Positions 22,397-64,000 of a stretch of 64,000 bases of DNA are shown one piece after another; position 1 is the stretch's first letter, and the number at the start of each line of letters is the position of its first letter. Location of the stretch: assembly GCA_019828565.1 (NCBI GenBank), contig JAHDYR010000067.1, positions 106,722 to 170,721 of the forward strand, written 5' to 3'. Under the pieces are notes generated by a model. That model saw nothing but the letters and a program-made list of their open reading frames with translations, was not told the origin of the DNA and ran no database searches. Both the position numbers and the translations under genes were made by a program. This stretch comes from Carpediemonas membranifera BICM (lineage: Eukaryota > Protista > Fornicata).

Positions 22397-22506
22397 TGTG
22401 GTCAGTCCTGGACACAAGGGAACCAATAAAGACTTTAGAGAGAATACTGCCATATCCTGCACCAAATGTGCAGGATAATACCTGTTGTGACCTGAGTCAC
22501 ACCACA
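22397..22506 (-). repeat. 3' LTR of outer element
   Basis: Identical to 55889-55998; TG..CA termini; PPT at 22507-22516. Confidence 0.92.
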
Positions 22507-34174: not shown

Positions 34175-34733
34175 TTACTTCTGGTGCTTTTCCTGCTCTC
34201 TCTTCTCCATCACGTCGTCATACTCGGCCCTCGTCAGCCTCACAGTTGTCATCCCGGCATCACGGATGTGCTCAAAGGCCTCAACGGGCAGCTTCGGCAT
34301 CCCGTCCTCGCTGTCGCTGCTGCTGCCCAAGTCTGACTCGCTCTCGTGATAGCGGCGAAGGCGAATGCGTCTGCTGGGCTCCCTGGTCTTCATAGCGTCA
34401 TAGAGCGGAGCGAGCCCACTTCCATTGGCCCCGCTACGGACACCCTCATCGGTATCTCTCTCAGACATATCACACTCAACCTGTTGTGACTGAACAAATG
34501 ACAGGTTGTCGACGAGGCTATCCTCGGCATCGCTGTCTGAACTCTCCTCATCCTCCCACTCTCCTTCCAGCATCTCCAACCCGGCCTCATCGTCAAACTC
34601 GCCCTCCACTGCGGTCTCCGGCATCTCTGCCTCGCCAGCTGTCTCGTCAAACAGCGCCTCATCGTCAGACTCACCCTCCCCTGTGTCGACCCCCATCGGG
34701 ATTACGCTGGTCGTGGAGCTGGACCATCCTCAT
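34175..34733 (-). CDS. acidic protein, copy 4 (extra base in C-run near 34690)
   Basis: Repeat-unit ORF; unit is 1097 bp. Confidence 0.5.
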
Positions 34734-35341
34734 CCTGAGCTTTTTGTAAAGCCACCAGGTCGGCAGAGCTTAAGGTAATCCTGGCGCCCTCATCCTGGCG
34801 CCTCATCCCTGGCGCCGTCATCCCTGGCGTCCTCTCCCTCATAAATCTGAATCATCTTCTTGTCTTGCTCCCGATGTTGTCATTGCTGTTTTCGTGTCCA
34901 CAAGCATTCCAGTCTCATTATAATGTTTATTCAGTACCAAATCATCCTTTAGTGACGGGCATTCTCATCTGCATTGCCGAGAAAAAGAGTTGATGTTGAT
35001 TAGATGGTGACGAATGCATTACCGGACATTTGACGCGCACAACCTGCTTAATACTGCATAAAAGCATCGCTGATCGCTTTCTCTTCTGTTCTTCAACGCC
35101 CAAGGAGCGGCTTCCAGGTCGGCAACGGTTGCCGACCTGGACCCGTGCAGTTTATGCTCGCAACCAAAGTTGGTCACAGTTTCAATGATACGTGTTAACA
35201 ATGCAACATAGACGGGTAAACACTGGTGTGAACTAATATATCCTCGCTAATTCACGTGACGTGAGTGATGTTGCACTTGTGACTATGAACAGACTCCTAG
35301 TTAATAGTACCGATCAAATTACCGAATACTTCATGTCATAT

Positions 35342-37290
35342 TTAGTTCTTACGTCTCCTAATCTTCACCTGGGTCGGCTTTGAGACCTTCCGCAAAGTTG
35401 CATGTCGACCCATCAACTGTATCACGTAGTTGATGTCGAGCCTGGCGCACTCCGCCCTAAAACTCTCCAGCGCTCTACTCTGATCGCCATCGAAGGGACG
35501 CCGCACTGTCAATGCATTGCCCTTCTCGTTACGGTAAATGTGCGTGATCATCTTCTCATCAATGTTGACAAGCATGGTCGGCTTCCCTGTCATCGAAGTC
35601 CACACTCTGATTGCTTCAACGCATGCCCATCTCGTCACTGTCCCGTCACTATTGACGTGCCCAGGAAACAGCTCATCCAGAAGCTCTATCTCTGTCATCT
35701 TTGAGAATACGGCCATGGTCCTTGCGTGGGCGAGGAGCGTCTGGCGGTAAGCTGTCGCCTCATCCTCAGCCTTGAGCTTCTGCGACAAGGGCAATTTGCG
35801 TCTGAACGCAGTAAATGTTCTCAGACCCGACATCATCATCAGGCAGTGAATGATGCAGTTCCCATAACCCAGGGTCGGATACGTAGGCCAACCTGAACTC
35901 GGAAGCCTTGTCGTGATGATCATGTCGAATGCCACAGTTCGGTTGTAGCGGGTTGGGTCAGACCTGGCGTTGACCACTCTTCCGCTCTCCTCGGTTTCAC
36001 CCTCCTCCTCTGCCCCACCCTCCTCGTCTGACTCGGCCTTCTCTTCCTCCTGCTCCTCCTCTGACTTACTCTTGGCCGGAGAGTGCTGTGCGATGATATC
36101 CTTCATCTCAGGCGTAAAGTTGAGGTCTATGGGGTCTGCCAGGTCATTCGGAGCGGTTGCTTGTGCAGACGCTGAGCAAACATCCTCGTCGTCGCCGGAG
36201 TTGCCGCCCTCGAGGTCGCCAAAGTGCAGCTCCTCCATCAACTCATCCGCCACTGGCTCCTCTTCCTCCTCTGACTCGACCTCCTCCACTGGCTCCTCTT
36301 CCTCCTCTGACTCCTCCTCCGAGTCCTCTGGCCTGGCCTTCTCGGGCGTGATGATGAGGGCCTTGCGCTTCACAGACATGGCTGCCTGCGCCTCGTCCGT
36401 ATCGCGTCGGGGACAGGAAGTCCTGGAGACTGTGCCAGACTGTGGCGGGATGGGGCTGCATGGGAGTGATGCATCCATGGACTTGTCAGCGTCATAGGCT
36501 GCCTCTCGCTCAGCCTGCTGCTGCAGAAGGCGTCGATGCAGCGTGATGACTTCCTCACTCTTTGCCGTCAAGCTCTTCCTCAACTGCTTGACTCTCTTCT
36601 TGTATCCTCGAACAATTTTGTGATAGTAATCGATGATAGCGCCAGTACCTGGGGGGAGCAGGGGCGTACCTTCTCCCGCGGGGGTCTCCAACCATTCCAG
36701 GGCGATGATGTACTCTTCGAAGTACGAGCGGCAGGAGTGCTTCATGTAAGCAAGGTCTGCCTCCTTGCTGCGCACCCTGGCAACCATTGCTGTGACATGG
36801 TCGCGCACAAGCGCGTTGGTGGATGTCGCGTTGCGCCACGCCCGAACCTTGACACTCAGCGCCTCTTTTTCGATACGCGCGCCCTCATTCTCCTTGGCAT
36901 ACTCAGCCCTCTTGGAGTTCTTGAAGGCTGTGACAGCGGCCGACTCAAACGCCTTCATCTCCTTCTCCGTGAAGGTTGCCTCGATGTTCTCGTTCGAGGT
37001 CTTATCCTGCACCTGCTGAGACAGCAATGCCTCGAGTTCTGCCTTCTTCTCGCCCTGAATCTCGAAATATGAGCACAGGTGGTTAAAGTTGATCCCTATA
37101 TAAACATTTGCACCAATTACGTACCGTTCTTGACGACTATATCGAAGATATCGTTCTCGTCGAGCAATTTGTCCCGAAGAACGGCACTCTTCGCCTTGTT
37201 TGTCTTCTTCTCCTTGAATTCGGTGATAACGGCCTCAATCACATCATCTGAGGTGCTCTCGATCCACTCGTGAAGGAATTCGAACGTCAT
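35342..37290 (-). CDS. coiled-coil + acidic + C-terminal OTU-like cysteine protease (intron 37096-37124)
   Basis: PTLGYGNCIIHC, W-x-loop (RWACVEAIRVW), IQLMGRHATL; 29-nt GTACGT..ATAG intron joins the 37117-37389 ORF in frame. Confidence 0.72.
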
Positions 37291-38074
37291 TCTTCTCTTC
37301 GTTATATCCCAATAATGGACATATAACAGAGATGAGAAAATTGCCAGTAACCGTAGGCAACGGGGTGTCGGAAACGTTATACCATACAAACGGGGGATAT
37401 AATCGCTCCGAAAACATCCATTATGTGGACTGAATGGCGATATAACGTATGGGGAGTGATCCGACGAGCTTTCGGGCGGTGCAGGCTAAGACACACCAAG
37501 TCTGTGGTGCTATAACGTACCTCGGGACGCACTGTGGAGGCCCCTAGAGTACTCGGTCATGGCATGTCAGACCAAGGGTCCCTCAAATCTGGCCCCATTC
37601 AGGATGCACCCCCTAAATGTTCCGTTGCAAGCGTCTGACGGGCGTTCTCTGGATACCGACCAAGATGGAGGTCACGTGGATGAACGGACGATAATTGCGG
37701 TATTCTGGCCATGCCTGGTACTCTCAAATCATCTGTACTGCTCTGTGCTCCATTTATAGTTCATATCGTTTCGTCCTGATGGACTTTTGGTACTTGATGT
37801 TGTTTAGAGATAATTGTTGCTTTAATGATGCTCTGCGCCCGCATACTGATGTTTCTTAGTGATATGTGCATGCCTGTATCGTTAAAGCCGCCAGTATTCT
37901 TCCTATTCTTCAGTTCGTCATTTCGGTCTCGTTGCGAGCATAAAGTGCGCGAATGCGCGGGTCAGTTCACCCGTTTTCAGCGAAGCTGATGCGACAACAC
38001 AGAGGCAAGCGAATCCTTACACCCCAGACGTCGCCAGGAGGCCGTTGTCTGCCAGGATCTATAAGCAGTGATGA

Positions 38075-38404
38075 GATATACGGATTTCAGACTTTCTGCC
38101 TGCACGACCTCAAATGTTGACTCCCCTCGGCACCGAAAAGGCACCTATATCCATGAATACCCTCTACAGTGATGTATCCACCCGATAAATGGATTTCAAA
38201 TTTGTCGGGTCTCATGATAAATGGATTTCAGACTTTCGTACTGTTGGCCATCTGAGAATTTATGAACGACCTCTAGAATATTTTGAAATGCAAGAACGTG
38301 CCTATGGCACTCTTTTGTACCCCTGAACACGGTTTGACCACTGTTTTGGGCATTTGGAGAGATTCGAATTTTTGTGCATGACGAAAGTCTGAAATCCGTA
38401 TATC
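38075..38404. promoter_or_regulatory. 22-bp perfect inverted repeat pair plus internal GATAAATGGATTTCA direct copies directly upstream of ORF 38406
   Basis: GATATACGGATTTCAGACTTTC at 38075-38096, reverse complement at 38383-38404; function inferred. Confidence 0.5.
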
Positions 38405-38405
38405 G

Positions 38406-39794
38406 ATGGAAGGAAGCCCGCAGGAGATGGAAACAACCATGGAAGCTGTAAAGAATGCTTGGTTGTGCACCATCAGCAAGAAATCTTCCCGGAAAGCGGC
38501 TGCAAACAACCTTTCGCGGTTCGTTCAATTCGTACAACGTGAGCGAGGGAGTACCGAGGACGAAGCGCTCTCCGTGATCCGATCCGAGGAGGTTAGATCG
38601 CTTGTGCCCGGTTTTGCTGCATCATTGAACAAGGCAACCGCTGCTGTCACTCTCAGTGCCGTCAACTCATTCCGAAACTCCGGCAGAGACAATGTCAAGC
38701 CGCTTGGGCAGTTTGAGCCTGTCGCATCGGAAGCTATTGTCCGACTAGTCTTCCCCTACAATGCGCTGGCTCTTATCATCAGCCACACGGGCATGACTGC
38801 CACATCAGCCCGCGATATTGATGTGAGCGAGCTCCAGATTCCCCCGGAACTCTCTGACTGGTTGCTATTCACCGGGGCACCATCTGCGATGTCCGCTGTG
38901 ATGCCTAGCACCTTCTCGCAGGCTCTCAAGTCGGTCGGGCTGAGTGTTAACCAGCTTCGCTATGCGCCCACTGTGCATGTCGATCTCAATCAGCTCAAGA
39001 AGCGGGTGATTGAGACACAAAGACGGACTGGCAGGCCCAGGGATCCGATCAAGGTTCGTAAGGTCATTAAGGACAAGCGCATCAGCCTGACCGATGAGCA
39101 GTTCAGGCATCAGTTGGCGTCCAGTCACTTAACGACCACGCGGCGCCCAACGATCCTCGATCTCAACCCGGAGATCCGAAGCTCTGCTGACCTGGTGCCG
39201 CCGACGCTCGATGACTGGCTTTACAACAAGCTCAGGATTAGGATGGTCCAGCTCCACGACCAGCGTAAGCCCGAGGGGGTCGACACGGGGGAGGGTGAGT
39301 CTGACGATGAGGCGCTGTTTGACGAGACAGCTGGCGAGGCAGAGATGCCGGAGACCGCAGTGGAGGGCGAGTTTGACGATGAGGCCGGGTTGGAGATGCT
39401 GGAAGGAGAGTGGGAGGATGAGGAGAGTTCAGACAGCGATGCCGAGGATAGCCTCGTCGACAACCTGTCATTTCTTCAGTCACAACAGGTTGAGTGTGAT
39501 ATGTCTGAGAGAGATACCGATGAGGGTGTCCGTAGCGGGGCCAATGGAAGTGGGCTCGCTCCGCTCTATGACGCTATGAAGACCAGGGAGCCCAGCAGAC
39601 GCATTCGCCTTCGCCGCTATCACGAGAGCGAGTCAGACTTGGGCAGCAGCAGCGACAGCGAGGACGGGATGCCGAAGCTGCCCGTTGAGGCCTTTGAGCA
39701 CATCCGTGATGCCGGGATGACAACTGTGAGGCTGACGAGGGCCGAGTATGACGACGTGATGGAGAAGAGAGAGCAGGAAAAGCACCAGAAGTAA
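38406..39794 (+). CDS. degenerate tyrosine-recombinase-like N-terminus fused to acidic tail
   Basis: LALIISHTGMTATSARDIDVSEL (box I-like, R->T), GLSVNQLRYA (box II-like), no catalytic Tyr region; last ~185 aa = amplified acidic ORF. Confidence 0.65.
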   Translation: MEGSPQEMETTMEAVKNAWLCTISKKSSRKAAANNLSRFVQFVQRERGSTEDEALSVIRSEEVRSLVPGFAASLNKATAAVTLSAVNSFRNSGRDNVKPLGQFEPVASEAIVRLVFPYNALALIISHTGMTATSARDIDVSELQIPPELSDWLLFTGAPSAMSAVMPSTFSQALKSVGLSVNQLRYAPTVHVDLNQLKKRVIETQRRTGRPRDPIKVRKVIKDKRISLTDEQFRHQLASSHLTTTRRPTILDLNPEIRSSADLVPPTLDDWLYNKLRIRMVQLHDQRKPEGVDTGEGESDDEALFDETAGEAEMPETAVEGEFDDEAGLEMLEGEWEDEESSDSDAEDSLVDNLSFLQSQQVECDMSERDTDEGVRSGANGSGLAPLYDAMKTREPSRRIRLRRYHESESDLGSSSDSEDGMPKLPVEAFEHIRDAGMTTVRLTRAEYDDVMEKREQEKHQK

Positions 39795-41229
39795 ATGGCG
39801 AGTGATTATCAACTGGATGCAGAGGCTGAGCGGCGTAACTAGCCTGCCAGGGTCCGTGTACACAGTATGTGTCTTGGCCAAGCTTGACTTCGTCGGTTGG
39901 CCGAAAAAGCATAAACTGCACGGGTCCAGGTCGGCAACCGTTGCCGACCTGGAAGCCGCTCCTTGGGCGTTGAAGAACAGAAGAGAAAGCGATCAGCGAT
40001 GCTTTTATGCAGTATTAAGCAGGTTGTGCGCGTCAAATGTCCGGTAATGCATTCGTCACCATCTAATCAACATCAACTCTTTTTCTCGGCAATGCAGATG
40101 AGAATGCCCGTCACTAAAGGATGATTTGGTACTGAATAAACATTATAATGAGACTGGAATGCTTGTGGACACGAAAACAGCAATGACAACATCGGGAGCA
40201 AGACAAGAAGATGATTCAGATTTATGAGGGAGAGGACGCCAGGGATGACGGCGCCAGGGATGAGGCGCCAGGATGAGGGCGCCAGGATTACCTTAAGCTC
40301 TGCCGACCTGGTGGCTTTACAAAAAGCTCAGGATGAGGATGGTCCAGCTCCACGACCAGCGTAATCCCGATGGGGGTCGACACGGGGAGGGTGAGTCTGA
40401 CGATGAGGCGCTGTTTGACGAGACAGCTGGCGAGGCAGAGATGCCGGAGACCGCAGTGGAGGGCGAGTTTGACGATGAGGCCGGGTTGGAGATGCTGGAA
40501 GGAGAGTGGGAGGATGAGGAGAGTTCAGACAGCGATGCCGAGGATAGCCTCGTCGACAACCTGTCATTTGTTCAGTCACAACAGGTTGAGTGTGATATGT
40601 CTGAGAGAGATACCGATGAGGGTGTCCGTAGCGGGGCCAATGGAAGTGGGCTCGCTCCGCTCTATGACGCTATGAAGACCAGGGAGCCCAGCAGACGCAT
40701 TCGCCTTCGCCGCTATCACGAGAGCGAGTCAGACTTGGGCAGCAGCAGCGACAGCGAGGACGGGATGCCGAAGCTGCCCGTTGAGGCCTTTGAGCACATC
40801 CGTGATGCCGGGATGACAACTGTGAGGCTGACGAGGGCCGAGTATGACGACGTGATGGAGAAGAGAGAGCAGGAAAAGCACCAGAAGTAAATGGCGAGTG
40901 ATTATCAACTGGATGCAGAGGCTGAGCGGCGTAACTAGCCTGCCAGGGTCCGTGTACACAGTATGTGTCTTGGCTAAGCTTGACTTCGTCGGTTGGCCGA
41001 AAAAGCATAAACTGCACGGGTCCAGGTCGGCAACCGTTGCCGACCTGGAAGCCGCTCCTTGGGCGTTGAAGAACAGAAGAGAAAGCGATCAGCGATGCTT
41101 TTATGCAGTATTAAGCAGGTTGTGCGCGTCAAATGTCCGGTAATGCATTCGTCACCATCTAATCAACATCAACTCTTTTTCTCGGCAATGCAGAGGAGAA
41201 TGCCCGTCACTAAAGGATGATTTGGTACT
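39221..41229. repeat. block C: inverted-orientation copies of the 1096-bp unit
   Basis: Reverse complement of block B units. Confidence 0.92.
40333..40890 (+). CDS. 185-aa acidic protein, copy 5
   Basis: Repeat-unit ORF. Confidence 0.6.
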   Translation: MRMVQLHDQRNPDGGRHGEGESDDEALFDETAGEAEMPETAVEGEFDDEAGLEMLEGEWEDEESSDSDAEDSLVDNLSFVQSQQVECDMSERDTDEGVRSGANGSGLAPLYDAMKTREPSRRIRLRRYHESESDLGSSSDSEDGMPKLPVEAFEHIRDAGMTTVRLTRAEYDDVMEKREQEKHQK

Positions 41230-41514
41230 AACAGGCTTTAATAAGCATGTCAAGCCTGTGATCACGATAACAGCCTTCAATAACTACATCAAGGCAATAC
41301 ATCAAGAAGATTGTTTAAAGAGACGGCGGGGAGCAAGATGCAGGGAGAGCGGCAGGGAAACGAAGGCATGGGGACAGGAGCCCGAGAAGAGCGCCTGGAG
41401 AACGGTGAGGAAGAACGGCGGGGAAGAGCAGCCGGGCGCATGGTACACACATCTGTCATCATGTGGCATCAACATTGCCACAGTGGTCAACTCAATAACA
41501 AGCAATGTCTTCAT

Positions 41515-42797
41515 TTACTCACTGTTCTGGATCACCAATTCGTACGACGAGTAACAGTCGGGACAGAGCCGAATCTTGGGAATCGACTTGCCACAGATGA
41601 CAATCTTCAGCAGCTCCATCTGTACGCAGTTGGCAGAGTTACAGAACCAGTGCCCGCACTGCCTACAGTGCACGGCTGAGTCGTTGCGTCGGCATGCGTA
41701 ACACTTCTTCTCATTGAGGCAATAGCTACACGTGTATTTCCAGCGACCCTTAGTGGACTCGGCCCAGTTCTTGTTCTTTCCAGTCTTAGGCCGGGGAGGG
41801 ACACAGCGTGAGTTGTCGTGGAAGTTCACTTTGCATTCCTGGCAAGTCACAAACTTTGACGTCACGCGATTGTCGATCCAGTCCAGACTGTGGCAATGGC
41901 CGCAACAGAAACAAAGCAGCCTATTCTGAATGTCGAGAATCGAGAAAGAATCATCACCGACCTCAGACACATCGTCATCGTTGTCCCCTTGGCTGGCCAG
42001 ACGTGCCTCCACGGTGGCGAGCCTCTGATCGACACTCATCGCGACACGGTGAACATCGTGCAGCACAATCGACTCGCGAGGCGCTTGAGGGGAAGCTGGA
42101 GAGGGAACCGAAGTGGGACCGGACGATGAGTGCAGGAAAGGCTCACTTTTCACGCAAAGCTCTTGCTTCACGTGTGTAAGGGCGGGGGTGGCAGGGTTGG
42201 GGATTTCAACTGTTCTGCACTTGCCCACAAATCTCTCCGGGTCATTGATATCGGGCACACAGAGATTAAAGTCTCGGGAGTCGAGATTATCTGGCACAGG
42301 AATATTGAGTCTCGACAGGACGGATCTGATCGCGCTGGTTAGCTCCGAACGGACTGGGCGAGGGAGCTCTTGCAGAGAGCATGGACAACCTTGGGTTTCC
42401 CGTCAGATATGGCCACAGTAACCCCCATCGTCTCAGCCCAATCTCGGACGTTCTTCGCAACAACCCTTCCCATCGAGACGCCAGGTTTCAACTTCAGCTC
42501 ATCGAGGAAGTCCGGTGTTTCGGAGCACGGCTGAAGAAACGACACGATGATGTGGTTGAACGCATTTCCGAGCTTTTTGATGGACAGGCCAGTTGGGTCT
42601 GAGTCAAAGACGTCAAACGCAAACGTGAAGAAGGCCTTAAGCATGCCCATCATGAGAATTGACCGGCAAGTACTCAAAGCGGTTGTGTTCCACTTCGTCA
42701 TCGGTCTCGATCTCTTAGAAACTGCCTTAACTGCATGATCGTCCGCCATGTTCTCATTTACGGCCGCGCGCTTCGTTTCTAGCTCCGTTTCTGTCAT
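41515..42797 (-). CDS. PHD finger + FYVE/ADD-like zinc finger protein (two ORFs joined by a short intron or frameshift near 42340)
   Basis: CFCC..FVTCQECKVNFHDNSRC..WKYTCSYC (C4HC3) followed by CYAC..HCRQCGHWFCNSANC..RLCPDC. Confidence 0.7.
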
Positions 42798-42987
42798 TCC
42801 AGAGTAGATTTTCTACTAAAAATTGGCATTGTTACAACCAATCATTAACATTAATAGAGAAGGAGAATAAAGACTCACCAGCCCGCGGCCAATCGTGACT
42901 CAGGTTCGCATCAGACGTCGACAGAGACGAGTTAAACATGAGGCTGGGCAATTGTCTTCTGAGCTAATCCTTAACCTTTCAAAGAGG

Positions 42988-45510
42988 ATGCTAATACCGA
43001 AGTGGACGCTATTACACGGCACTATTTATGCTCCTCAAGAGGATACTGGCATCAACACCATTCTATGCAGCGTGTACCTTTCCATTGACTCAGATAACGT
43101 CAGCACACATCGGTTTCGTGTTTCCAAAGCTCCCCAACGCCGTGAGTTCGTCCAGGTTGTTCAAGAGTTGCTCAGTGCAGGATATATATGTCGCCAGGAT
43201 GTTTCAAAGCAGCTGTACCCCTCTCCGACTGCCACATCTATCGCTGCGGAGAAGAGGAATCACACGACTTACCCAAGAGCCTACGTGAAGCATACATCCG
43301 CAGTTGACACTCTCGCAGCCGAGAATGAGTGTCTACGGAAGCGTCTGGCCGACACGGAGCGCCTGATTCAACTAACGAACCAGCTCAAGTCCATCACAAA
43401 CGGATACAATGCCGTTAACGACGAGATCCGCATAATGAACTCTCTTGCAGGTAGGCTTAACCTTGATATTGTGTGGATATCTCCTGTTACCTCGAAGATC
43501 AAGTCTCTCGCGTGTAATATCCAGAATATGGAGGAGATAGAATCACTTCTCCAATCTGACACCGCTTGGAGGAGATTTATCCGCAGTCACGTTCCCGCCA
43601 ACATTCAGCACAGGGTAACGGCGAGAAGGTCTGATCAGGCCAATCAGGAATATGAGCTCGACCTCATCACCCATGTCGAAGCTCCTCTTGATGTTGTACG
43701 ATCATCTATTCAGGGCGACTCGGCCCATGCAGAGCACGTTGCAGGAAAAATCGTCGTCTTCTATGACTCAGAGCAGGACCGTGAGACTCACTATAGCATC
43801 ATGAAAGAGCAAGGCCTCACCCCTCGGATGCAGACGAGTACAAGATATACCCATGTATATCATGCATCATTTGATATCATGGAGTATTATCGCCAAGCGG
43901 TTGCATTCCCCGTATCGCTGGAGACGTCACGATCCGGGCGCAAGAGTGCAGCTCGGACATTAAGACGACAGAGTCATTCCGCTGAGACGGGGACGATCCC
44001 ACTCGTGTTAGAGGTGTGGGTCGATGCGTGGAGAGGTCTGACAACCGCTGTTAAGATTCGTTTCCTCGACGACTCCCACAAAGTCTTTCCGTCTGGTGCG
44101 ACTCCTCCTTTCCGGATTCTTGAATACAACGGCCCAGAAAGTCTCATCACTGAGCACTTTGCCTTCATTGAACAATCCATCGAGAGCACACACCGCGAGG
44201 TGCTGGAAGTCAGGAACACGGGTCTCCTCTGCCGAGTAACGCGTGTCTTTATTATCGCAGACCATCCAGCCATGTCCAAGGTTTGCGGGGCACTCATTGG
44301 AGGCAATTACCCCTCGCCATTCAGTTCCGTTCATTCGAAGAACAAGGGCTGGAGTCCCTTTGGTCGCACCCCGCGCTGCACCTTGGCAGATATCCTGCTG
44401 GCGAAGCATAAGTCACAGTTCGACACTGTTATGGACAGAGAGGCCAAATGGGGATCCTTCTATAACCATCAGAAGAAGTGCATCGCTCCCACTTTGTTTG
44501 AGACGTCGACTGCATCGCTGCCCAGAGACTGCGTCTTCTTATTCCCTCCGATCATGCATGTCAGTCATGACTTTGTGTCGTTGATTCATGCCATGTGCCG
44601 CATGTTCAAGCCAGAGCCAATTGACCCAGACAGCGACCCTCGTCAAATTAAGGAGGTGAAGGCAAGGAACGCGATGCTAGCGAATCTGGCGTCGTTTGAG
44701 CCACCCAGCCGTACGACGGGCTGCAACGAGCAAGTCAAGGGGAGAAAGATGATAGCATCGATTGGACTTAAGCTGCATCGTGCGTTCCCGCCACCCGTGC
44801 AGTCATTATTCATACTCGCTGCATACCTCCAGGAGCACTACTATTCCCACGAGGATGTAACTGAGAACATGGTCGTGTGGCATCGCTTGACAGCACTTCT
44901 CGTGCACCTCTTCTCTGTGACCATGTGTCTTAGCACATCTAACACGGTTGCCCCAGACATTCCGATCCGTCAACCATCTGCGACTCCCGATACGGCGCCG
45001 TGTGTTGATACACTTCACGGATTGGCGCGTATTGCCGCGCTGCCGGAGATACAAGCGAAGACTCGGGCCTCCTTTGGTCGAGTCATCGAAGAGTGCTTTG
45101 AACGTGATTTCATTGGGAATCAGGAGAGTCGAGTGCGATTGCGTCAGAACCAGACGGTTCTTGAGAGCACTATTCTGAAGGAGCAGGTTGAGTTGCTGTT
45201 CAGATGCCTTCGTGGAGTGATTTCCTACGGAAGACGCGAAACAGATGTCCCACCCCAGTCACCCCTGAAACTTATGCGCATTCATAAGTGTTGTAAGGAT
45301 GCCAATTGGTGGCTTCGTATCCGGAGTGTGCATTCTAAGACGCTGACAGCGACTGAGTGCCAAAAAGCTGCACATGGTGTTTACGAAGGAAGTCAACGGC
45401 CTATGGCGCACTGTCTTGTCGAAAGCAGACTGTAGCTTTGACTCAGACTGGCTGGATGTTCCCATTCACGAGCAGGGACACACTCTTGATGTTTGCATAT
45501 GCAAGAGATA
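42988..45510 (+). CDS. DDE transposase, CMC (CACTA/Mirage/Chapaev)/Transib-RAG1-like; C-terminus probably extends by frameshift to 45510
   Basis: Putative triad EVWVD / IIADHPA..G..GGNYP / IEECFERDF, plus PPIMH; largest ORF inside the TIRs. Confidence 0.72.
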
Positions 45511-45709
45511 GTAAAGATCGGATTTAGTCTCGCGGTCAATCTCACGTGGCCCAGAGCAGCGTGCTCCTGGAATCAACAGGGCATAAAACACCCTGCGTAT
45601 TCCGGTAGCACACCGTTCTGACTCACGTCCGTCTCTGGTTGTCGTACAGGTCTATTTACGTGTTTGGCGATGGCGCTCCTGACATAAGCTTAATGGCGTG
45701 TCGTGGCTG

Positions 45710-45973
45710 TCAGTATGCTGCAAATGTCTCAGCGAGAAAGGAGTCACCAATCGCGTTCAGCTTACTTGTTTCTCGCCTGATACTGCTCGTAATATCGTTC
45801 AAGCGTGAATCTATGAAGTAATGGGACTGAATGGCCTCTATTGCGTCAATTTCCTGCGTAATCGTTGTTGAATGGTCTAGAATAGATGTTGCAGCTACTT
45901 CCAGCTCATGTTGCATGCTAAATGCTGTGTTTTTGGACAATTGGTCGTGTTCAGGCAGAATTTTTTCGTGCAA
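45710..45973 (-). CDS. small hypothetical coiled-coil protein
   Basis: 87-aa ORF with heptad pattern. Confidence 0.3.
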   Translation of the reverse strand: MHEKILPEHDQLSKNTAFSMQHELEVAATSILDHSTTITQEIDAIEAIQSHYFIDSRLNDITSSIRRETSKLNAIGDSFLAETFAAY

Positions 45974-46584
45974 AGTGCAGGCTAATACCCGTCCTTAAAC
46001 TGTGGGATCAGCCGCTGGGTAAATATACTGAGAAAAAACCATATAGCTGAGTTCACTGTCTTGTGCTGAATACGGTGGCGCCATTTATTTCTCTGAATCG
46101 TCAAGTTTTGTCAGCGTTGACCGCGCAAGACCGGTCGTCCTTACGCGATGTCACCAACACCATCATATTCTTCCCCCTGACATTCTACGTGTCCCCCAGT
46201 CTGGATTCGTGGTCTGCAATATTCACAGAGATATTCGCCTTCTCTTTCGCGAATTTGACTCTGATCAAGTCGAAAAACGAAAAAACGACCATATCTCGAA
46301 ATCTACACGTTGGAATCGGTACCAGAGTGATTTTGCGCATATGTACATCCCGTCAGCAGTCTGCAAAATCACTCTCGTACCGATTCCAACGTGTCGATTT
46401 TGAGATATTGCTCGTTTCATCCTTTTGCCTTAACCTGCGTCGCAAAGAAGTCGAAATCAGTGGTTAGACCGCACTGGACCTCTTGCAGGCTCTCTGCATA
46501 CGCGCTTTAGTATGCAATGAAGGTATTCATTTTCCCGTAAATTGTTTAAATTCAATGAATACTTCATTTTCGGTCCGGAAGAAA

Positions 46585-46658
46585 TAGATAATCTAGGGTT
46601 TTTAGGCCCTAGATTATCTAGAAAAAATCGTAGATTATCTGCCGACTTTCACAGTATG
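46585..46658 (-). repeat. right TIR of giant transposon
   Basis: Ends ...CTTTCACAGTATG followed by AA. Confidence 0.95.
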
Positions 46659-48250: not shown

Positions 48251-48372
48251 TGTTGTGGGTCCTACCCAAAGTTACACAGATTTACGTTATATTTAATAGT
48301 CAAGGAGTTTCTCCTCGACACCCTTGTGTCGAGTCTTCTCCTCAGTAAAAGTTCAACACCCATTGAACCACA
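48251..48372 (+). repeat. 5' LTR of chromovirus
   Basis: TGTTG...CCACA identical to 54074-54195. Confidence 0.96.
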
Positions 48373-48393
48373 GTACTAGTACTACCAAAACAT

Positions 48394-52330: not shown

Positions 52331-52372
52331 AACTTCTCAACATCGAAGCTATATCCTCGAGGAACAAACGAT

Positions 52373-53266
52373 TTATTCAGAGCTAGATTCCTCGTCTTCC
52401 GTCTCCTCCGTGTCCGTCAGCTCGACCAACCAAGTCGGGTCAGCGTGGCGCTCAAGGGCGTTCTCAGCCAAGTACTCTCGCACACACCGGACAAGGCAGA
52501 GATCAGCGTTGAGGGACACGATGCTGAGTCCCGAGTATCCGTCATACTGCAGGATCAACACAAAAGACCCGGGACCACAAGTCGTCTTCAGATACTCGTG
52601 ACGGACTACGCACGTGACAGTGTAGTAGCGGTCCGGATCAGAGACCTGAAGCGGCTCCCAGTGAGCCTCATCGGCAATGGCGGGCAGGTAGCCGTCGTGG
52701 CACAAGCGGCTGACCAGGGTTGCCCAGAAGTCGTTGGGAGCCGGGATGCGCCTGCTGATGCCGTAGACAGCGACACGGAAGTAGTCCGGTGCGAGGACGA
52801 GGACCAACAGGCGGTTAAGATATCCGCGCGCTGTAGTGTCCGACTTGACCCCGCCGGCAGTCCGCACAGCCGCCACGAGAGCTGCAGAGTAGTGACCATT
52901 ACCGGGTGAAGACCCACCCAGCGTGATGTCGCGGCCCCGGATCGCGGCCGACACGATGTCGCCATCGGTCAAGCGCTTCCTGCCGAGCTTGAGGTGGGCC
53001 CTCACACCGGCAAGCGCGACCTGGCAGTGAGCCACGAGAGCCAAGACCTGCTGGGTCAGCTTCACGTCCTGCACTACGGCTGCGTCGTTCAGACGACCTT
53101 GCTCAATAGCGTCAAAGATTCGCTGGAGCGGCAGCTCGATGGAGTTGGTGTAACCTTCCAGGCGTCGGGCAACCTCGGCCTTGATGTCGTGGGGCATCAG
53201 AGTCGTCATCGTCAGGGTGCGAGTGATGCGTTCTGAGGCTTGCACGCGGTGACTATATAACCTCAC
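52373..53266 (-). CDS. extra antisense ORF of the chromovirus, unknown function
   Basis: Intact 297-codon frame between pol and 3' LTR, not overlapping pol. Confidence 0.65.
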   Translation of the reverse strand: MRLYSHRVQASERITRTLTMTTLMPHDIKAEVARRLEGYTNSIELPLQRIFDAIEQGRLNDAAVVQDVKLTQQVLALVAHCQVALAGVRAHLKLGRKRLTDGDIVSAAIRGRDITLGGSSPGNGHYSAALVAAVRTAGGVKSDTTARGYLNRLLVLVLAPDYFRVAVYGISRRIPAPNDFWATLVSRLCHDGYLPAIADEAHWEPLQVSDPDRYYTVTCVVRHEYLKTTCGPGSFVLILQYDGYSGLSIVSLNADLCLVRCVREYLAENALERHADPTWLVELTDTEETEDEESSSE

Positions 53267-54063
53267 GGTTGATGTTTGTTACTTACAGATTGTCGGTGAC
53301 CATGCGCTTGCGTCCACGATACTTCTGAGCGCGAAGGGAACGACAAACGGACGTATGGGCAACAATAAGTGGCCTAGCCAGATCGTCATCACCAAGTTCG
53401 GTGATTTTTGGCACGAATTTCCTTCAGAACGGCCTCTACGGCTGTGTTGTCCGACATCAAATGAGTTGACGGCGACATATCCTGCACATTTCTCGGAAAC
53501 GGTCGAAGGAACAACTAACAAGGTCATCTTAGTCTTCAAGCATGCATTTATTGTCGGTAATAAGGCATTAGGAGCTTCCTAGTGCTCCTTCCGGTCAGTT
53601 TGATGTTGTTATTCAAGTACAGTTGGACGCAGAAAATTAGAAGCCTCAGAACTCCTCAACGGAGCCGAATTGGAGCTTCTAAGTACGTTTTTCGGCGTCT
53701 GTGTGATTATGAGCGATAAGGGCTCAGCATTGGCAGTGTTTGCTAGAGCAATCGTTCTTGGCCTTCGAATTACATGGAATGGCATATAACACGTATAAGG
53801 TTTGTGAAGACGGCCTAGGAAGGCCGTGGAGGGGCAGTGGTAAGCCTTTCCGTCACGTTTCACCATTTTTGAAACAGAGCTCACATAGCGGTACCGCAGT
53901 TAGATCATGATACCATCATTTTGATTTCGTTCAGCTAGATGCGAAAGCACTCAGGCCATGGGGTTGCCAGCCCTATGAGTCACCGTTGGCGGTCGGGTGG
54001 CACCGTCCAGGCCTTTGGTGAAATGCTGACGTCAAGTCTCTCTGTCATGCCTATACCAGGCAT

Positions 54064-54073
54064 GGAGGGGCAG
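54064..54073 (+). other. polypurine tract of chromovirus
   Basis: GGAGGGGCAG abutting 3' LTR. Confidence 0.88.
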
Positions 54074-54195
54074 TGTTGTGGGTCCTACCCAAAGTTACAC
54101 AGATTTACGTTATATTTAATAGTCAAGGAGTTTCTCCTCGACACCCTTGTGTCGAGTCTTCTCCTCAGTAAAAGTTCAACACCCATTGAACCACA
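54074..54195 (+). repeat. 3' LTR of chromovirus
   Basis: Identical to 5' LTR. Confidence 0.96.
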
Positions 54196-55888
54196 GGGTG
54201 CCAGAGGCTGCTCGCCTCTATTGGCCTGAAGGTGTTGTACTGAGAGGATGGGCGCATCGCTGGAGGACGGGCCGACATGTGTTCGAGCTGCAACATGCTC
54301 GCGATACCCGTGAGTTGCTCGTCACGGGATGAGGTGATAATACGACCATACTAGACTGGTCGTGGTTTCGGTACAAGTCTCACAGAGGAAGGGACCCGTG
54401 AAACTACTATCTAAACTCGTTGAAGAGCTGCTATGCGCGGTAACGCTGCCCCTCCGCGGCTCTGAAGTACTTTGTGTTGTCGCCGCGTTGTTGTCTGATG
54501 ACTGTTGGTCTCGTGTCTACTAAATTGACTTCAAGCAAGGATGCCGGTCATGATAAGTGGAAGCTAAGTAATTACCTTACCTGAGTTTGGCGGGTAGCAC
54601 AGCTAGCCTTGACAAAAGTGCGAGCCATTGTTGCTCAAATGGAGATGCTCGCGCCATGGGGTGAACGATGGCAAGCGCGATACAGTTGACAGCAGATGGG
54701 GTGTCTGCCCAGGCTGTCGCGTACTGAGGATGTGGATGAGCAGCGGTCGAGCTTATCGTTGCTCTATGACGCTGGTTGCCCCTGACAGGGAATTGCGGAG
54801 ACGGTGGCGTGCTAGCTCTATTGGTTCATGCCGTGTTGCTGTACGTGGAAGGGACCTGCAAGCTGGCGAGTTCGCACATGTTCGGGGATAACTGGAGAGC
54901 AAACCTTGAAGCTGCTCAATACGGGTGCTGTTTCAGCACTGTGTGGATAGAAGGATATAACTGGCCGTCTAGGACCCACTGCTAGCAGTTACGTGCTCCA
55001 CATGCTCTGCTGAGCATTTGTTAGGAAGGTATACATGGCCTCATGTAGACATATAAATAGTGTGGATCGCTCCCACGACTGTAGGAACCGAGCTTGGTGT
55101 CCCCAGATGGGTCGTTACCTCTTTCGGTTTTTCATCGTCGATGATGGTAGTTGCCTGTCTGGCTTGGGCCATTGGCCCTGTGCCACGCTTGCTCATGGTC
55201 TGCTGGATGACCCGAATGATGTATGACTTGCTCTGGGCGCATGTGGCCAAGCTGCTACTTGCTACTCTCTAGGTAGCTCTGGATGATGGTTGGGGACGAT
55301 GATTCTGGAGGTCTACGTTGGTCAAAGTCGTGCGTGGGTCTGTCAGTGAGTCTACTGGGGTCACTGCCCCTTCTTGGCTTCTTCTCGCACTGTCTCGGGG
55401 TGTTCGATTTGGCTGGACGTGGAAGTGGCTGGCTCCTCGGCGTGGTTTTGGTTTGTTTTGCCTTTTGGCGGCTTTGGTGGTGCTTATTCCTGGTGCTATC
55501 TGCACTGTATCGGCTTGTGCTTGGCCTGGCCACTGGTCTCGTTGCTGGTCTCGGTCGATTGTCCTGAAGGAGCTTGATTGGCGCTCCAGAGCTGGTATTG
55601 CGGTGCTGTATCGTTTGTTGGAGCTTATTGAAGCTTGGTTACTGGTATTGGCCTGTTGTTTGCTTGTATGCTATAGTGCATTGGTGGAAGTTGATGGTCT
55701 TGTTGAACTAAACGCTCTAGACTTGTTGTTGCTTGCGAATTTCAGTTGAACTGTCGACACCGCGGAGACATTTGCATTGCGCTAACGGAAGAAATTGGTT
55801 CTGGTGAAAATGTCAATTGATGTTGCTTATATTGATTCTCCTGCGCCAGGACCGTTGAGCTCATCTCCTCCGGAAGAAATGATATCAT

Positions 55889-55998
55889 TGTGGTCAGTCC
55901 TGGACACAAGGGAACCAATAAAGACTTTAGAGAGAATACTGCCATATCCTGCACCAAATGTGCAGGATAATACCTGTTGTGACCTGAGTCACACCACA
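55889..55998 (-). repeat. 5' LTR of outer element
   Basis: Identical to 22397-22506. Confidence 0.92.
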
Positions 55999-56471
55999 AC
56001 GGGAACCCCGAGCTCCGCGATGATGACGGGAACCCCGAGCTCCGCGATGATGACGGGAACCCCGAGCTCCGCCGTGATGACGGGAACCCCGAGCTCCGCG
56101 ATGATGATGGCAACCCCGAGCTCCGCGATGATGACGGGAACCCCGAGCTCCGCCATGCCGCTGTGAACGGTTTCCACAGGCCTCAAGATGAGGTGGATCT
56201 CCGTCGCATGCCAGAACAACGCGTTCCCGAGCAGAATATGGAAGAAAATATGGCAGAAAACGGCATGCAACACGAGGATGACAGCTATGTGACCTGGAGA
56301 GACTTCCGTGCTTTCCAGGATGAGGTTCGTGGCCAATTTGCTGAGGTTCATGGCCAATTTGCTGAGGTTCATGGCCAATTTGCTGAGGTTCGTGGCGACA
56401 TTCGCCAGCTCAACGCCACAATCGAAGAGCTGCCTGGCAGGATTCTCGCCATGATCCACAATCGGGATTAA
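55999..56471 (+). pseudogene. 3' half of RDDDGNPE-repeat gene, with FAEVHGQ heptad repeats
   Basis: 24-bp repeats continue to ~56153, frame runs to stop at 56471; 21-bp repeats near 56321-56394. Confidence 0.75.
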
Positions 56472-58652: not shown

Positions 58653-59905
58653 ATGGTCTTTAAGCTCTCCGCTGCCGATTTGACGCAACTACACAAGACT
58701 AACTACAGTAATACGTACATTGCCGACATTAGCGGGGTCAAAACTGTCGTCAAGGTCGATAACTGTATGACACTTCGCCTGACACACGAAAATACGATAC
58801 TTCAGGCAATGAAAAGCCCATTTATTGTTACAATCGTCGATGTGGGCTTTGTTGACAGCGATCAAGCGTTTGCCACTCGCTTTGTTGACCATATGTCGTG
58901 GCGAGACGTTCTGGCACTACCAGTACCGGATCAATGTCGCTACTTGCGGCACTTACTGTTAGCTCTCAGCCATGTGCATGAGAATGGATTCATCCACGGC
59001 GACATCAAGCCCGACAACTACCTTTTCAACCGAGAAGACGGTGGATTACTCATTGACTTCGGCTCTGCCATCAAAATAGAGGCTCCTACTGGGATTAACA
59101 GGTATATGGGACAAGACATGAGAGGGACACCTGGTTTTATCCCCCCGAGCTTCGTGCCGACGAACTCAGTCGGAAATCGAAGCATTGTACAGTAGCTATG
59201 CGGGAACCACAGAATTTGAACCCCTTCCAGGCTTCCAGGAACACCACAACCAGAAACACCAACATGCACACAGTTGATGCGGCATACGACATCTTTTCCT
59301 GCGGCGTTATCGTCCTCATGATGGCATTGCGACTGGATAAGTCTCCATTTCGATCTGTGAGAGTGGATGGTGGCAAGCCAAGTAACCCAGACGAGCATAT
59401 TGGCGCTCTATATAACATGGCGTACTTCTACGGCCGCGAAATCACGATACACAGCAAGAAGAAGAATGCAGCCCGTGGTTTGATGATCAATCCGACTCTC
59501 TGCACGAGAGGAAGCCCTCCGACACAGTATAGGAGCCTTTATGACCTTGCAATGGGGATGCTCAGCTATAATCCGGAGGATAGACCAACAGCTTTGATGT
59601 GCGCTGAACATCTCAACGATATCGCCGCCCTAGCAGCAACGTTCGCATCAACACCACTGATGATCAACGACCAGGTGACAATCTCTCAGGAAACGCTCGC
59701 TGCCGCCAAACTCACCGTTGAAGCACTTCGAGAAACCCGATTTGCTGGCCGATGCATTGCATGTGGCATGCCGGTTCACGATAATCGAACAATAACTTGC
59801 AAGACACACCACCAAGATTACAGAAGCATCATGAACCCCCACACAAAGAGAAGAGGACGAGTTTGGAGGGTTCATCGTGATCTATCATTGATTATTGATA
59901 TGTAA
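58653..59905 (+). CDS. Ser/Thr protein kinase, Cdc7/CMGC-like motifs (frameshift in C-run 59141-59146)
   Basis: TVVK, HEN, HGDIKPDNYLFN, DFG, RGTPGFIPP(E after +1 C), YDIFSCGVI, PEDRPTA; C-terminal CxxC..C..H. Confidence 0.85.
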
Positions 59906-60345: not shown

Positions 60346-62027
60346 TTAATCACTCTCATCATCTTTTTGTCTACTTGTGGATGACGGAGCGCCTTCCTGT
60401 ATTTGCGCTTTTCTTTTGATACCCTCTGGGAGACTGACAAGTTCCGCATGGTCGTCCTGGAGCAGAATAAAGTGGGTAATGCCATGTCTGGAACAGAACA
60501 CCTGGAAATTCTCACAACGATCAGCAGCTGAGTCGCCAGAAGGGTACAAACCCCAAAACTGGTGACCATGTGTGAACAATATCACTGTAGAATTATTACC
60601 GTTGTTGCACACCATGATGACATTACGCATGTAGATCATGGAAAACTCTCGCACAGCATCATCGGTAAGCCAGCCCATCTTGGAAAACAGTTCTGCCTTA
60701 GCGGAATCCTCCGTCAGAGCCGTCCGCTTCACCCGGCTTTCCACCAGCTCGGCACGCAAAGCCATGGCTGCCTCAAGATCTGTTCTGTGGGTCAGGGGTG
60801 GTCATATCCCGGAAATGGCCGTCCCTAATCATGCAACAGCAGTGCGCAACACAGCTGCCATCACGGTGTGTCGAGTATTTCCTCCATGACTTCAACCCAT
60901 TCACAATTTCCTCAACGAAGGACTGTGGCTGACCGCTGGTGCCGATTGGAATCTCTTTCTTCTCAATCATATTGTTGATGTGAGACTCAATGGCCACAGA
61001 TGACTCGTGTTCAGACTTGATCAAGAGCAGAGAGCGAAAGTCGACGATCTTAGCAGTGGAATCGAAGTTCGGGTACGCAGGCCGGTAAACCTTGTTAAGC
61101 AAAGGATAACAACGCGGCGGGAGTCTTGCGTCTTCCTCCGATACGATCTTCGCTTTTGCACAACCGTCAGGTCTTGCGATAATGACTCTTCGCTTCATGT
61201 ACGAGAGCTTGGACATCCAGAACCAGAATTGCGCGATCTCATGGAGGTGATCTGGCTGAGTCATGATTCTGATGAGCCACGTGGCGTCATGGGCGGCAAG
61301 TTCGACGGCGGGTAGCTCATCTGGTGTCAAAAGCACCACACACCGTTGCATTGTGAACTTGAACTTGCCAGAATACAACTGAAAGATCGGCCGTGGGTCA
61401 CGGGCGGAAGACTGGCAGGCGGCAATATACACACCCATGATTCGGGCGAACTTGCAGACATGACTCTCATAATTCTTCAGAATTGCCTCGATGAAGTCGA
61501 AGGCAGTTGTCCAGATGGCTGGTATCGTGCGGGCATCGACCACAAACCGACCATCAGAGTCCGAGTGACCAGTGATAATGAAAAAAAGTCTCATAGTCAC
61601 CATACAGCTTGCCGAATTCCTTGATTTTCGCCTCAAAATCGTCCTCGTTCTCGAACTGGGCCGTCTCGATAACCGTATACTCGCTATGCATTGCCGCAAA
61701 GATCTGACGAATGCGTTCTGCGTGCCCTCCAATGGAGACAGATTCATCAATCGAAAACTGCCTGCTATCTCCAGCAACGAACCCATAGGTTGGCTCGAAC
61801 ACGATGAGGACACGTGTATTCTTCAGCGCCAGTGCAGTACGGGTGCACTTGTGACGTCGGGATGGCGAGGGAAAACCGACGTTGCGTGTTTCGCTACTGA
61901 TGTCCCCACAGACACATTCAAACAGCTTTGATCCATCCAGATATCGATTTCTCCACCCCATTGCATTGAAAAATGTCTGATCGTCGTTCATGACGCCAAT
62001 GCCAAATTGAGGGTGAGAAAATGGCAT
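60346..62027 (-). CDS. caspase-like (clan CD) protease fused to OTU-like protease (frameshifts near 61584 and 60796)
   Basis: RVLIVFE..HAERIRQIF..FFIITGHS..YIAACQS; then RDGSCVAHC..GWLTDDAVREF..ILLQDDHAELV. Confidence 0.68.
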
Positions 62028-62088: not shown

Positions 62089-62971
62089 ATGGCTAGAACA
62101 AAGCAAACGGCTCGCCGGCCTACGCAAGGTGGAAAGGCGCCTCGCAAGCAGTTAGCAGCGATAGCTGCGCGGAGAGCAAATACTTCGTCGTACCGCACCT
62201 ACAAGCCGTTGTCTCAGGCCGCGTTGGAGAATTGCACGGCAGTCCTGCAAAAGGCTGATGCTGATATCCAAGAAACTATTCTGTCGTGCATCAAAGAAGA
62301 CGGAGGCGCACAACTTCAAGCAGATGGTCAAGAATTCAACACGAGCTGGTTTCCGACTTGCATTCAACACTGAGTCCGAGTCTGTCCACATGAACCCATC
62401 GAGGAAGGACGAGGTGGCAGCGCGGGCAGAAGCTGCTTACCAATCAGCGCTGCATGCCTTCCGCAGCGTTGACCCTGAGACTGCTGCGACAGAAGATATG
62501 AAGACACTGCTTGACACCTTAGCGGTTGCTCTTGACGCAACGCCAGATGTGCCACATGCTCGCCTGGATCCTGAAGAACAGCGTCGGTTCCTGAAGCTGA
62601 AGGATACGAAGAAATTCTCCAAGTACTGCCTTCCTCGCAGTGACGAGAAGTTTTTCTCGACCAATCTTCGCGCTGCCTTGCGCGAACACCTGGCGAAGGT
62701 GTTTCCAAACCTCCCTTGGAACAAGATTGTCTCCTGCTTCTCCCCTGAAGCGATCAATGCTGATTTCTTTATCCTGTCCACGAGCAATGCCACCTACGAC
62801 GAAGCTTGCCTGACAATGCCGTCTGATGAGAGAAAGAAGCTTCGCAACCATCTTTCCATGACTGAAGAACGGCAGATTGCTCGTCAAGAGATGGAGGTTG
62901 GGATTTACCAGTTTTTAAAGAGAGCTCGGTATGTTCTCTACGGTGTAAAAGATGCAATTGTTGACCATTGA
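62089..62971 (+). CDS. divergent histone H3-derived protein (K9R, K27R), apparent frameshift near 62226
   Basis: MARTKQTARRPTQGGKAPRKQLAAIAARR; removing one G gives YKPLSQAALRIARQSCKRLMLISKKLFCR, aligning gap-free to H3 [29 protein letters not shown]. Confidence 0.78.
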
Positions 62972-62987: not shown

Positions 62988-63804
62988 CTAAACCCCACTA
63001 TTCGAAGGCGTCTCTGCGGGCTGAAGAGACATAAAGGTTAAAAACAGTTTAAGGAACTCGTCCAACGTCTTCGCATTGTGCGTCATGGCCACCTTGTCCT
63101 TCTTCGTCAACCTCGATTTGGTACCCTTTCTCTTCACAGTCGTCTTCTTCTTCTTAGAAGGCTCCCAGCTCCCCATTGGCGCATGCTTTTTCTTAGCTTC
63201 TTCTGCTCTAATCTGTACTTCTCCTCCTCCGTCATGTCTGCTTCCTTTTTTTCTTTTGCCTTCGCCTTCTTCTTCGACTTCATTACATCTAACTTCTTCG
63301 CCTTCTCTGCATCCTCCTGGACCACGCGAGAAATTGAGTGCTTCACGTCCTTCGGTACATCACGATTCCTCGCATGCTTAACCACGACAAAGACATTATC
63401 GTCAGTGCCGCCACCTTCAAGGATGACCTTGTCCTTTGGGATCTTGCTGGTGGCAACCAAGAAGCAGATCGGCTTCTTATCCACCTTGAATAGGGCAAAC
63501 CTGCAGTTGCCAGCAGCCGAATGATGGCAAAAGCTTGTTGACGCATGCTTCATCAGGAGTCATGAGGGTGCAGCTGTGACGATAGCTGAATCCGAGAAGG
63601 CTGATCGCTAAGAACACCCTTGGCAATCCCGAGCACTTCTCCCTCATCAACATCGCCAGCCGTGACCAAACCATACATCATGTCATCGCCCTTTGACACC
63701 ATGCATGTGCTGCACTTCAGAGAAATGAGCGATTGGCCGTCAAGCTCGACAATTTGGTCATCATCGAAAGGCAAGGCGTCTATCTTCATCGCGGCTTCGC
63801 CCAT
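62988..63804 (-). CDS. divergent SET-domain protein with Lys-rich tail (frameshifts; 5' end may lie further upstream)
   Basis: YGLVTAGDVDEGEVLGIAKG, SFCHHSAAGNC, FLVATSKIPK; in-frame upstream WNCQLC may be the end of a PHD finger. Confidence 0.62.
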
Positions 63805-64000
63805 GTCCGCCCAATTTGCATAGACACGACGCGCAAGCTCTTCCGGAAAGCAATCGCAGCAAAGTTGACAGTTCCACTTTCTTGCTGCATTCTACGCAGT
63901 TTATACCAGCAGTTTATACGCAGCAATGACACAGCACCAAGAGCGTGGCACACAACCCTTCAATGACCCATGTAAGGTTGGGTGGGTCTTATGTCAGGCT

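Follow-up and report, generated by a model that had tools for sequence, protein, structure and literature searches.

Genetic context of the H3-derived gene

Examination of the window, that is, the whole stretch of 64,000 nucleotides analysed here from contig JAHDYR010000067.1 of Carpediemonas membranifera BICM, revealed near its right-hand end a reading frame that opens at 62089 with a methionine followed by a histone H3 tail (ORF list and translation). The gene lies to the right of a transposon end, together with kinase, OTU-like and SET-like genes (Table 1). Translations follow the standard code; the window is eukaryotic DNA, and its host genes, between 1 and 21.5 kb, are long and free of introns.

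Table 1. Features of the H3-derived gene, of its carrier element and of the sister element. Null fractions of the H3-like blocks are optimistic, the block borders having been chosen after the alignment was seen and the null windows overlapping.
Feature	Position	Strand	Evidence
Sister element, complete, 22.7 kb, no H3 tail found inside	23921..46658		inverted repeats of 74 nt, termini CA..TG, flanking AA left and right
Putative transposase of the sister element	42871..45432		motif resemblance only
Left end of the element carrying the H3-derived gene, starting CATACTG after AA	58153..58515	+	homologous to the left end at 23921
Ser/Thr kinase gene of the carrier element, one frameshift	58653..59905	+	Pfam Pkinase E 5e-17
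Putative OTU-like protease gene, divergent from the H3-derived gene, frameshift near 60780	60346..61744	-	Cys/His motifs
Initiation codon, then the N-terminal tail of H3 (1-27, with one residue inserted)	62089..62175	+	phmmer, alignment to H3
Zone of the one-base frame break	62173..62408	+	P0018 frame changes, tail-frame stop at 62371-62373
H3 39-50-like block, tail frame (Y41, P43, A47, E50)	62194..62229	+	4/12 identical, null fraction 0.011
H3 51-72-like block (alphaN end and alpha1), +1 frame	62231..62296	+	7/22 identical, null fraction 0.007
Block like H3 73-101 (L1 with the N-terminal half of alpha2), +1 frame	62300..62386	+	7/29 identical, null fraction 0.002; hhalign path
C-terminal part, about 194 residues, predicted helical, weak late alpha2/L2 echo after an 11-residue insertion	62387..62971	+	open frame, codon model
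SET-like gene in pieces, with a Cys-rich region ahead of it, running towards the H3-derived gene	63134..63891	-	Pfam SET E 0.087 (below the Pfam cut-off)

The inverted repeats of the sister element are 97% complementary, and the AA on its two sides forms a 2-bp target duplication, although two bases can match by chance. Only the left end of the carrier lies within the window, its right end falling beyond. The left ends at 58153 and 23921 share their first bases and agree at 82% over 221 nt, which places the H3-derived gene inside a sister element running off the window. The carrier is likely a giant DNA transposon. The ends of the element fit the CMCT clade as the relevant passages of PMC12730594 define it, and giant Plavaka elements with an accessory SET gene have been described in parts of 10.1101/2025.02.11.637652. 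An earlier note on this DNA had proposed a transposon-encoded derivative of H3, and both the descent from H3 and a setting in a likely DNA transposon are supported. No transposase of the carrier element was found inside the window; in the sister element, the ORF listed in Table 1 is a putative DDE transposase, which it resembles in C(2)C and H(3-4)H motifs, and gave no Pfam or PDB sequence match. The sister element further holds SET-like (27565-26881, minus strand, motif-only), HEPN-like (26671-26168, E 0.004), OTU-like (37234-35345) and PHD/FYVE-like (42402-41518) genes, and a tandem unit of 1096 bp that is repeated about eight times, in two orientations.

The kinase of the carrier element has Cdc7 as its best PDB match (E 7e-10), by a small margin over the next family (3e-9); the host is reported to lack several replication-initiation proteins. 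The SET and OTU flanks named in the earlier note are weakly supported. The SET-like gene stays below the Pfam cut-off and reaches only E 0.33 with SETD8, and the gene labelled OTU-like, after its Cys and His motifs, has no Pfam match; its Cys and His regions resemble those of the sister element's counterpart, with 0 and 1 of 1000 shuffles as good. A search for relatives of the OTU-like ORF yielded 873 candidates, none of which passed. Single shifts break each of the kinase, OTU-like and SET-like neighbours, whereas all of seven host genes between 1 and 21.5 kb have long frames that stay open.

Elsewhere in the window lies a Gypsy-type LTR element (48251-54196) whose 123-nt repeats are identical. 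It matches a chromodomain weakly (E 0.057), carries an additional ORF on the antisense strand (52376-53278), and its RT and RNase H are separated by a frame shift. A GC-rich gene coding for a zinc finger and a SET domain (SET E 0.02) is found among the host genes at 10757-12441, in two overlapping frames, and a region of 27-nt tandem repeats occurs twice, at 22246-22506 and 55889-56198, 33.6 kb apart.

The H3 tail

The H3 tail at 62089-62175 is real. A phmmer search of PDB with the ORF returned an H3 match at E about 1e-7, and 22 of 27 tail positions equal those of H3 when one inserted residue is allowed near position 11-12. Residues 1-8 match H3 perfectly, the tail sits at the very N-terminus of the protein, and the ARTK and KAPRK motifs are both present. 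The tail features described in the earlier note are present in the window copy. In full, K4, K14 and K18 are retained, the substitutions are K9R, S10P, T22A, K23I and K27R, and S28 and K36 are missing from the tail and linker region, which leaves both ARKS motifs without their Lys and Ser. The R9 codon (CGG, 62116-62118) is two base changes away from a Lys codon and the R27 codon (AGA, 62173-62175) one.

Sibling copy and frame break

The tail frame (A) ends at its stop at 62371-62373, and only the +1 frame (B), open from 62165 over 268 codons, continues to 62971, so that one net frame change is needed. An intron in place of the break was rejected, there being no spare sequence between the aligned H3 blocks.

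The best of 189 tail matches, which is also the sole relative of frame B among the 1.84 billion representatives searched, is P0018 (KAG9389682.1), a Carpediemonas membranifera protein named 'histone H3/CENP-A' and located on a contig other than that of the window's host genes. Of nine window proteins searched, three have exact database entries, on a contig of 905,863 bp, and P0018 is on one of 727,793 bp. It is a separate copy of the window gene, likely from the same species. The annotated protein of 127 residues crosses four frame changes, reading frame A (residues 1-28), B (31-54), A (55-69), B (to 105) and then A again; inside every frame segment its residues are 100% identical to those of the window gene, and the first 28 residues are identical. 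The two copies differ by four indels, at about 62174, 62250, 62293 and 62407, and by almost no substitutions, as would fit long-read error; part of PMC8516963 states that the genome from which the record comes was assembled from nanopore reads and polished. The name of the entry looks automatic, and the entry is likely a frame-shifted transposon gene; the legend of Supplementary Fig. 7 in the same paper (PMC8516963) mentions 'other divergent H3 variants'. Two copies of the gene are known, neither of them with an intact frame. An exact look-up of four readings of the window gene in the protein database found no entry, metagenome and viral contigs searched for related loci gave 338 and 58 pattern matches of which none was confirmed, and protein searches aimed at the window gene returned no relative outside Carpediemonas membranifera.

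The one-base correction proposed in the earlier note was right as to the need for it, and less so as to its site, 62221. In the full codon model this site falls 8.7 bits below 62293, the best single switch and also one of the indel sites of P0018, while H3 similarity is best with a switch at 62230, which also recovers E50 and which would have to be common to both copies. A codon model restricted to synonymous choices gave no location for the break, and the codon test has an error of its own: tried on 340 stretches of 23 codons each, it let a shifted frame beat the true one in 2-4% of them. By judgement, we give a break at about 62293 an even chance and one at about 62230 a little less than that; position 27 is Arg with either.

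Remnants of the histone fold

Beyond the tail, three H3-like blocks follow in register (Table 1). The block resembling H3 39-50 comes after a linker that has no K36 and falls short of the H3 linker by 4-5 residues. The next block contains the alphaN and alpha1 matches listed in the earlier note, which are indeed present in the +1 frame; off-frame null windows scoring as high made up 0.007 with band 1 and 0.026 with band 5, fractions to be read as optimistic. Only a break near 62230 would make this block coding; over the block, codon statistics favour the tail frame by about 8-9 bits. The third block is in frame under every reading, and its continuation of H3 in register through position 101 speaks against the claim that about 170 unrelated residues follow alpha1. 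Neither it nor the H3 39-50 block depends on the choice between 62293 and 62230.

Farther downstream the resemblance fades. Late alpha2 and L2 (H3 102-117) align only with an insertion of 11 residues (null fraction 0.08), alignment through alpha3 carries no signal (null fraction 0.66), and a continuous alpha2, L2 and alpha3 with H3-H3 interface residues was not found in the anchored alignment. When the alignment was global, anchored at the tail and free to place the break, 12 comparisons were made, and in each of them 0-6 of 400 controls did as well; a local alignment that allowed for frameshifts gave a marginal result, with 8-22 of 250 and 2-8 of 150 controls as good. Without a positional prior, the fold signal beyond the tail is not significant. 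Unanchored hhalign of the fold scored 14.5, a value equalled by 7 of 60 shuffles; the histone profile PF00125 found no match at E up to 10 in either reading, in a search whose HMMER filters drop weak matches; and our own H3-fold HMM, run without filters, gave no signal in six of six readings. The hhalign path, the anchored alignment and the block tests led us to abandon the view that H3 descent ends with the tail. H3 ancestry is faint, and appears to extend through mid-alpha2, farther than the earlier note had traced it.

Identity in the fold region amounts to 18/63 (about 29%) or 12/63 (19%) according to the frame reading, against 22/27 in the tail (Fisher p 5e-6 or less), a difference that argues for selection on the tail. 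The gene probably derives from a whole H3 gene of which the tail was kept and the fold relaxed. It does not correspond to CenH3/CENP-A, for which we used the definition in the Supplementary Fig. 7 legend of PMC8516963 (an intact fold with a long L1 and a tail that diverges): its tail is canonical-like, there is one extra residue at the alpha1/L1 border, and the fold is incomplete.

Over the C-terminal part the codon model yields +70 bits, a coding-like value, and among the 1.84 billion representatives this part has no known relative except P0018. The proposal that its terminal helix may correspond to alpha2 found no support: a profile score of 11.7 was reached by 17 of 60 shuffles, and early alpha2 is found at 62300-62386 instead. 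Single-sequence structure models of the gene product are of low confidence (mean pLDDT 47 and 45). A structure search with such a model retrieved generic helical bundles (best Z 8.7) and no histone among the best 50 matches listed; another had no match at E 0.001 and, again, no histone among the matches listed. An atlas search with the 268-residue frame gave no usable match, and the gene product has a weak match to Pfam PAF (E 0.053).

Replacements at positions 9 and 27

Changes in the tail touch three of its six lysines and two of its 21 other residues (Fisher p 0.056), and the chance that five changes among 27 positions would hit both K9 and K27 is 0.028, a post hoc figure; a targeting of K9 and K27 is suggestive only. 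P0018 carries R9, P10 and I23 as the window copy does, but has an indel at codon 27-28 and reads Lys at 27; across the copies, then, R9 recurs, and K27R is found in one of two.

In a set of 35 distinct tails from 58 loci on virus contigs (unreadable tails and duplicates excluded), positions 9, 22, 23, 27 and 28 vary, K9 being kept in 28 and K27 in 26 of the 35. Since K9 and K27 vary there too, these sites are labile in the H3 of selfish elements generally, and the changes need not have been selected for anti-silencing. R9 and R27 occur together in 9 of the 120 listed tail matches (of 189), as counted by pattern match in a set biased towards R9. The host's canonical H3 was not among the best 120 of 189 tail matches listed, and some of the tail differences may be host-wide. 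P0020, P0023, P0024, P0026, P0091 and P0092 are H3 proteins that are complete and carry Arg at 9 as well as at 27; P0026 is 89% identical to the H3 L001 from a giant-virus bin.

In Trichomonas, a metamonad relative, silent transposon genes are marked by H3K9me3 and H3K27me3, according to sections of PMC11875748, which agrees with the role of K9/K27 methylation in transposon silencing that the earlier note had taken as established. Parts of two further reports state that E(z) is absent from all metamonads studied (10.1101/2021.07.16.452543) and that histone marks often occur without their usual writers (10.1101/2021.11.30.470311).

Possible role of the gene product

We tentatively favour, at somewhat less than even odds, the reading that the gene product is a transposon-made protein displaying an H3 tail, which would help to keep the chromatin of the element open, and is not a nucleosomal histone. 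A whole H3 gene would have been captured by the transposon, and pairing with H4 and the H3-H3 interface would then have been lost. With the start Met removed, Ala1 would be free; the tail would accept only activating marks, at K4, K14 and K18, and would recruit either the SET-like protein encoded by the element or the machinery of K4 methylation and acetylation, while the C-terminal scaffold would tether it to the element. Tail display is preferred because late alpha2, L2 and alpha3 are not recognisable and a nucleosomal variant would need this second half of the fold; the conservation of the tail far above the fold and the three in-register blocks also speak for it, as do the place of the tail at the very N-terminus, the loss of Lys and Ser from both ARKS motifs, the SET cargo known from giant CMCT transposons, the single shifts in the neighbouring genes beside open host frames, and the like layout of L057. 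The living family would have an intact frame and the break would be an assembly error, as the two copies, identical within segments yet separated by four indels, and the nanopore-built genome suggest. Several points weigh against this explanation: neither of the two known copies is intact, and a shared break near 62230 could be real and mark a dead subfamily; the annotated protein of the sibling reads K27; the altered tail sites vary in virus-contig H3 too; and E(z) was not found in the metamonads studied. A wider scenario seems rather unlikely to us, namely a metamonad giant-transposon family in which a captured H3 became a tail-display anti-silencing protein without both ARKS sites, shipped with SET-like, OTU-like and kinase genes as a chromatin toolkit.

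The gene might instead be cargo, dead or idle: an H3 gene that was captured and has no present function, in a subfamily that is decaying and whose copies share a genuine break. This is unlikely, if a contender to be taken seriously. Such decay would account for two copies of which neither is intact, for neighbour genes that are broken as well, for a best H3 reading that requires a break in both copies, and for the lack of relatives outside Carpediemonas membranifera in protein searches; it agrees poorly with a +1 frame open over 268 codons with coding-like statistics, with a tail far better conserved than the fold, and with copies that differ by indels and almost no substitutions. The window gene could also encode a soluble decoy or sink, its tail titrating host readers or erasers that act on the H3 N-terminus in its unmodified or K4-methylated form, or competing at K9/K27 methyltransferases, and so lowering silencing genome-wide. 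A free N-terminal tail with perfect residues 1-8 and the loss of the fold would suit a soluble mimic, and tail fusions do exist in giant-virus bins, as L057 shows. We nevertheless regard this as distinctly improbable. In the EZHIP test reported in part of 10.1101/585729, Met or Ile at the target site lowered H3K27 methylation and Arg or Lys did not; S10P and the inserted residue also disturb the context of K9; and E(z) was not found in metamonads, as passages of 10.1101/2021.07.16.452543 have it. With Arg a poor inhibitor, where Met or Ile would be expected of a protein that blocks writers, and with E(z) not found in the metamonads studied, the decoy for K9/K27 methyltransferases suggested in the earlier note is weak.

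More doubtful still is the silencing-resistant H3 variant that the same note had put forward, which would pair with H4 and enter nucleosomes on the element. Given a break near 62230, it can draw on an H3 similarity that starts at the tail and keeps its register up to about V101, and it can further draw on the complete H3 genes with R9 and R27 in public data; set against it are an identity of about 29% (19% in the other reading) in a normally near-invariant fold, the 11-residue insertion needed inside alpha2, an alpha3 without signal, the want of a PF00125 match and about 190 extra residues. Finally, K27R could be an artefact of a break within codon 27-28, in which case the family would have K27 and only K9R would be real. 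P0018, which changes frame at 27 and reads Lys, points that way; yet a switch at about 62174, although it gives K27, scores 14 bits lower under the full codon model and forfeits the Y41/P43/A47/E50 block, and the smallest edit explaining P0018 is one lost base with a change silent in the tail frame, as far as translations allow this to be deduced. An artefactual K27R is very improbable, and by judgement there is scarcely any chance that the break lies at about 62174.

Comparison with known systems

With canonical H3 and K27-altered variants the window gene shares the tail (22/27) and in-register remnants of alphaN, alpha1, L1 and early alpha2. It differs from canonical H3 in a fold identity of about 29% at best, in having no late alpha2 or alpha3, in its about 190 extra residues and in being, likely, transposon-borne. 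The carrier and its complete sister element together resemble CMCT (EnSpm/Plavaka-like) transposons in CA..TG ends, 2-bp target duplication, length of about 20 kb and accessory SET-like gene (PMC12730594, 10.1101/2025.02.11.637652); in the relevant passages of these two papers no histone-derived cargo is named, whereas the cargo in the window comprises a histone tail, a kinase and an OTU-like protein. Other transposon systems with chromatin cargo offered for comparison are HarbingerS with its SET gene, the TET/JBP transposons, and VANDAL elements with their VANC anti-silencers. Chromatin enzymes and anti-silencers are familiar transposon cargo, and histones and tail mimics occur in viruses.

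Single H3 genes of giant viruses, described in parts of PMC9145170, likewise place H3, whole or as a tail, on selfish elements, and K9 or K27 is frequently altered in them, but most of them keep the full fold, and among the 35 distinct virus-contig tails none that is clearly aligned carries both R9 and R27. The sole automatic call of Arg at both sites in this set turned out, by eye, to be a tail without an ARK motif. The layout of the window gene recurs in L057, where an H3 tail with Ile at 27 is fused to an unrelated protein. This locus (L057:3001-3438), from a giant-virus bin, joins the tail to an unrelated acidic/basic protein of 120 residues and adjoins a gene that is helicase-like by its motifs. 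Other IMG/VR H3 genes are altered at position 27 as well, in oncohistone-like or other ways (bins as assigned): besides the Ile of L057:3001-3438, Met is found in L004:3001- and L015:3001-, and Ser, Thr or Leu in L010, L025 and L031. Met and Ile at H3 position 27 are residues that inhibit PRC2.

EZHIP (K27M-like) and PAF15 offer a further parallel, each being a mimic with an H3-like stretch on a non-histone protein. EZHIP, however, inhibits via Met; the window protein bears Arg instead, its tail spans 27 residues, and it truly descends from H3. Transposons with chromatin cargo, H3 genes in viruses and tail mimics are all kinds already known; searches of open-access literature did not turn up a transposon-borne H3 derivative with a tail edited at both silencing sites. 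If functional, the gene would represent a new anti-silencing design, and it would provide a probe of K9/K27 silencing in a lineage without detected E(z).
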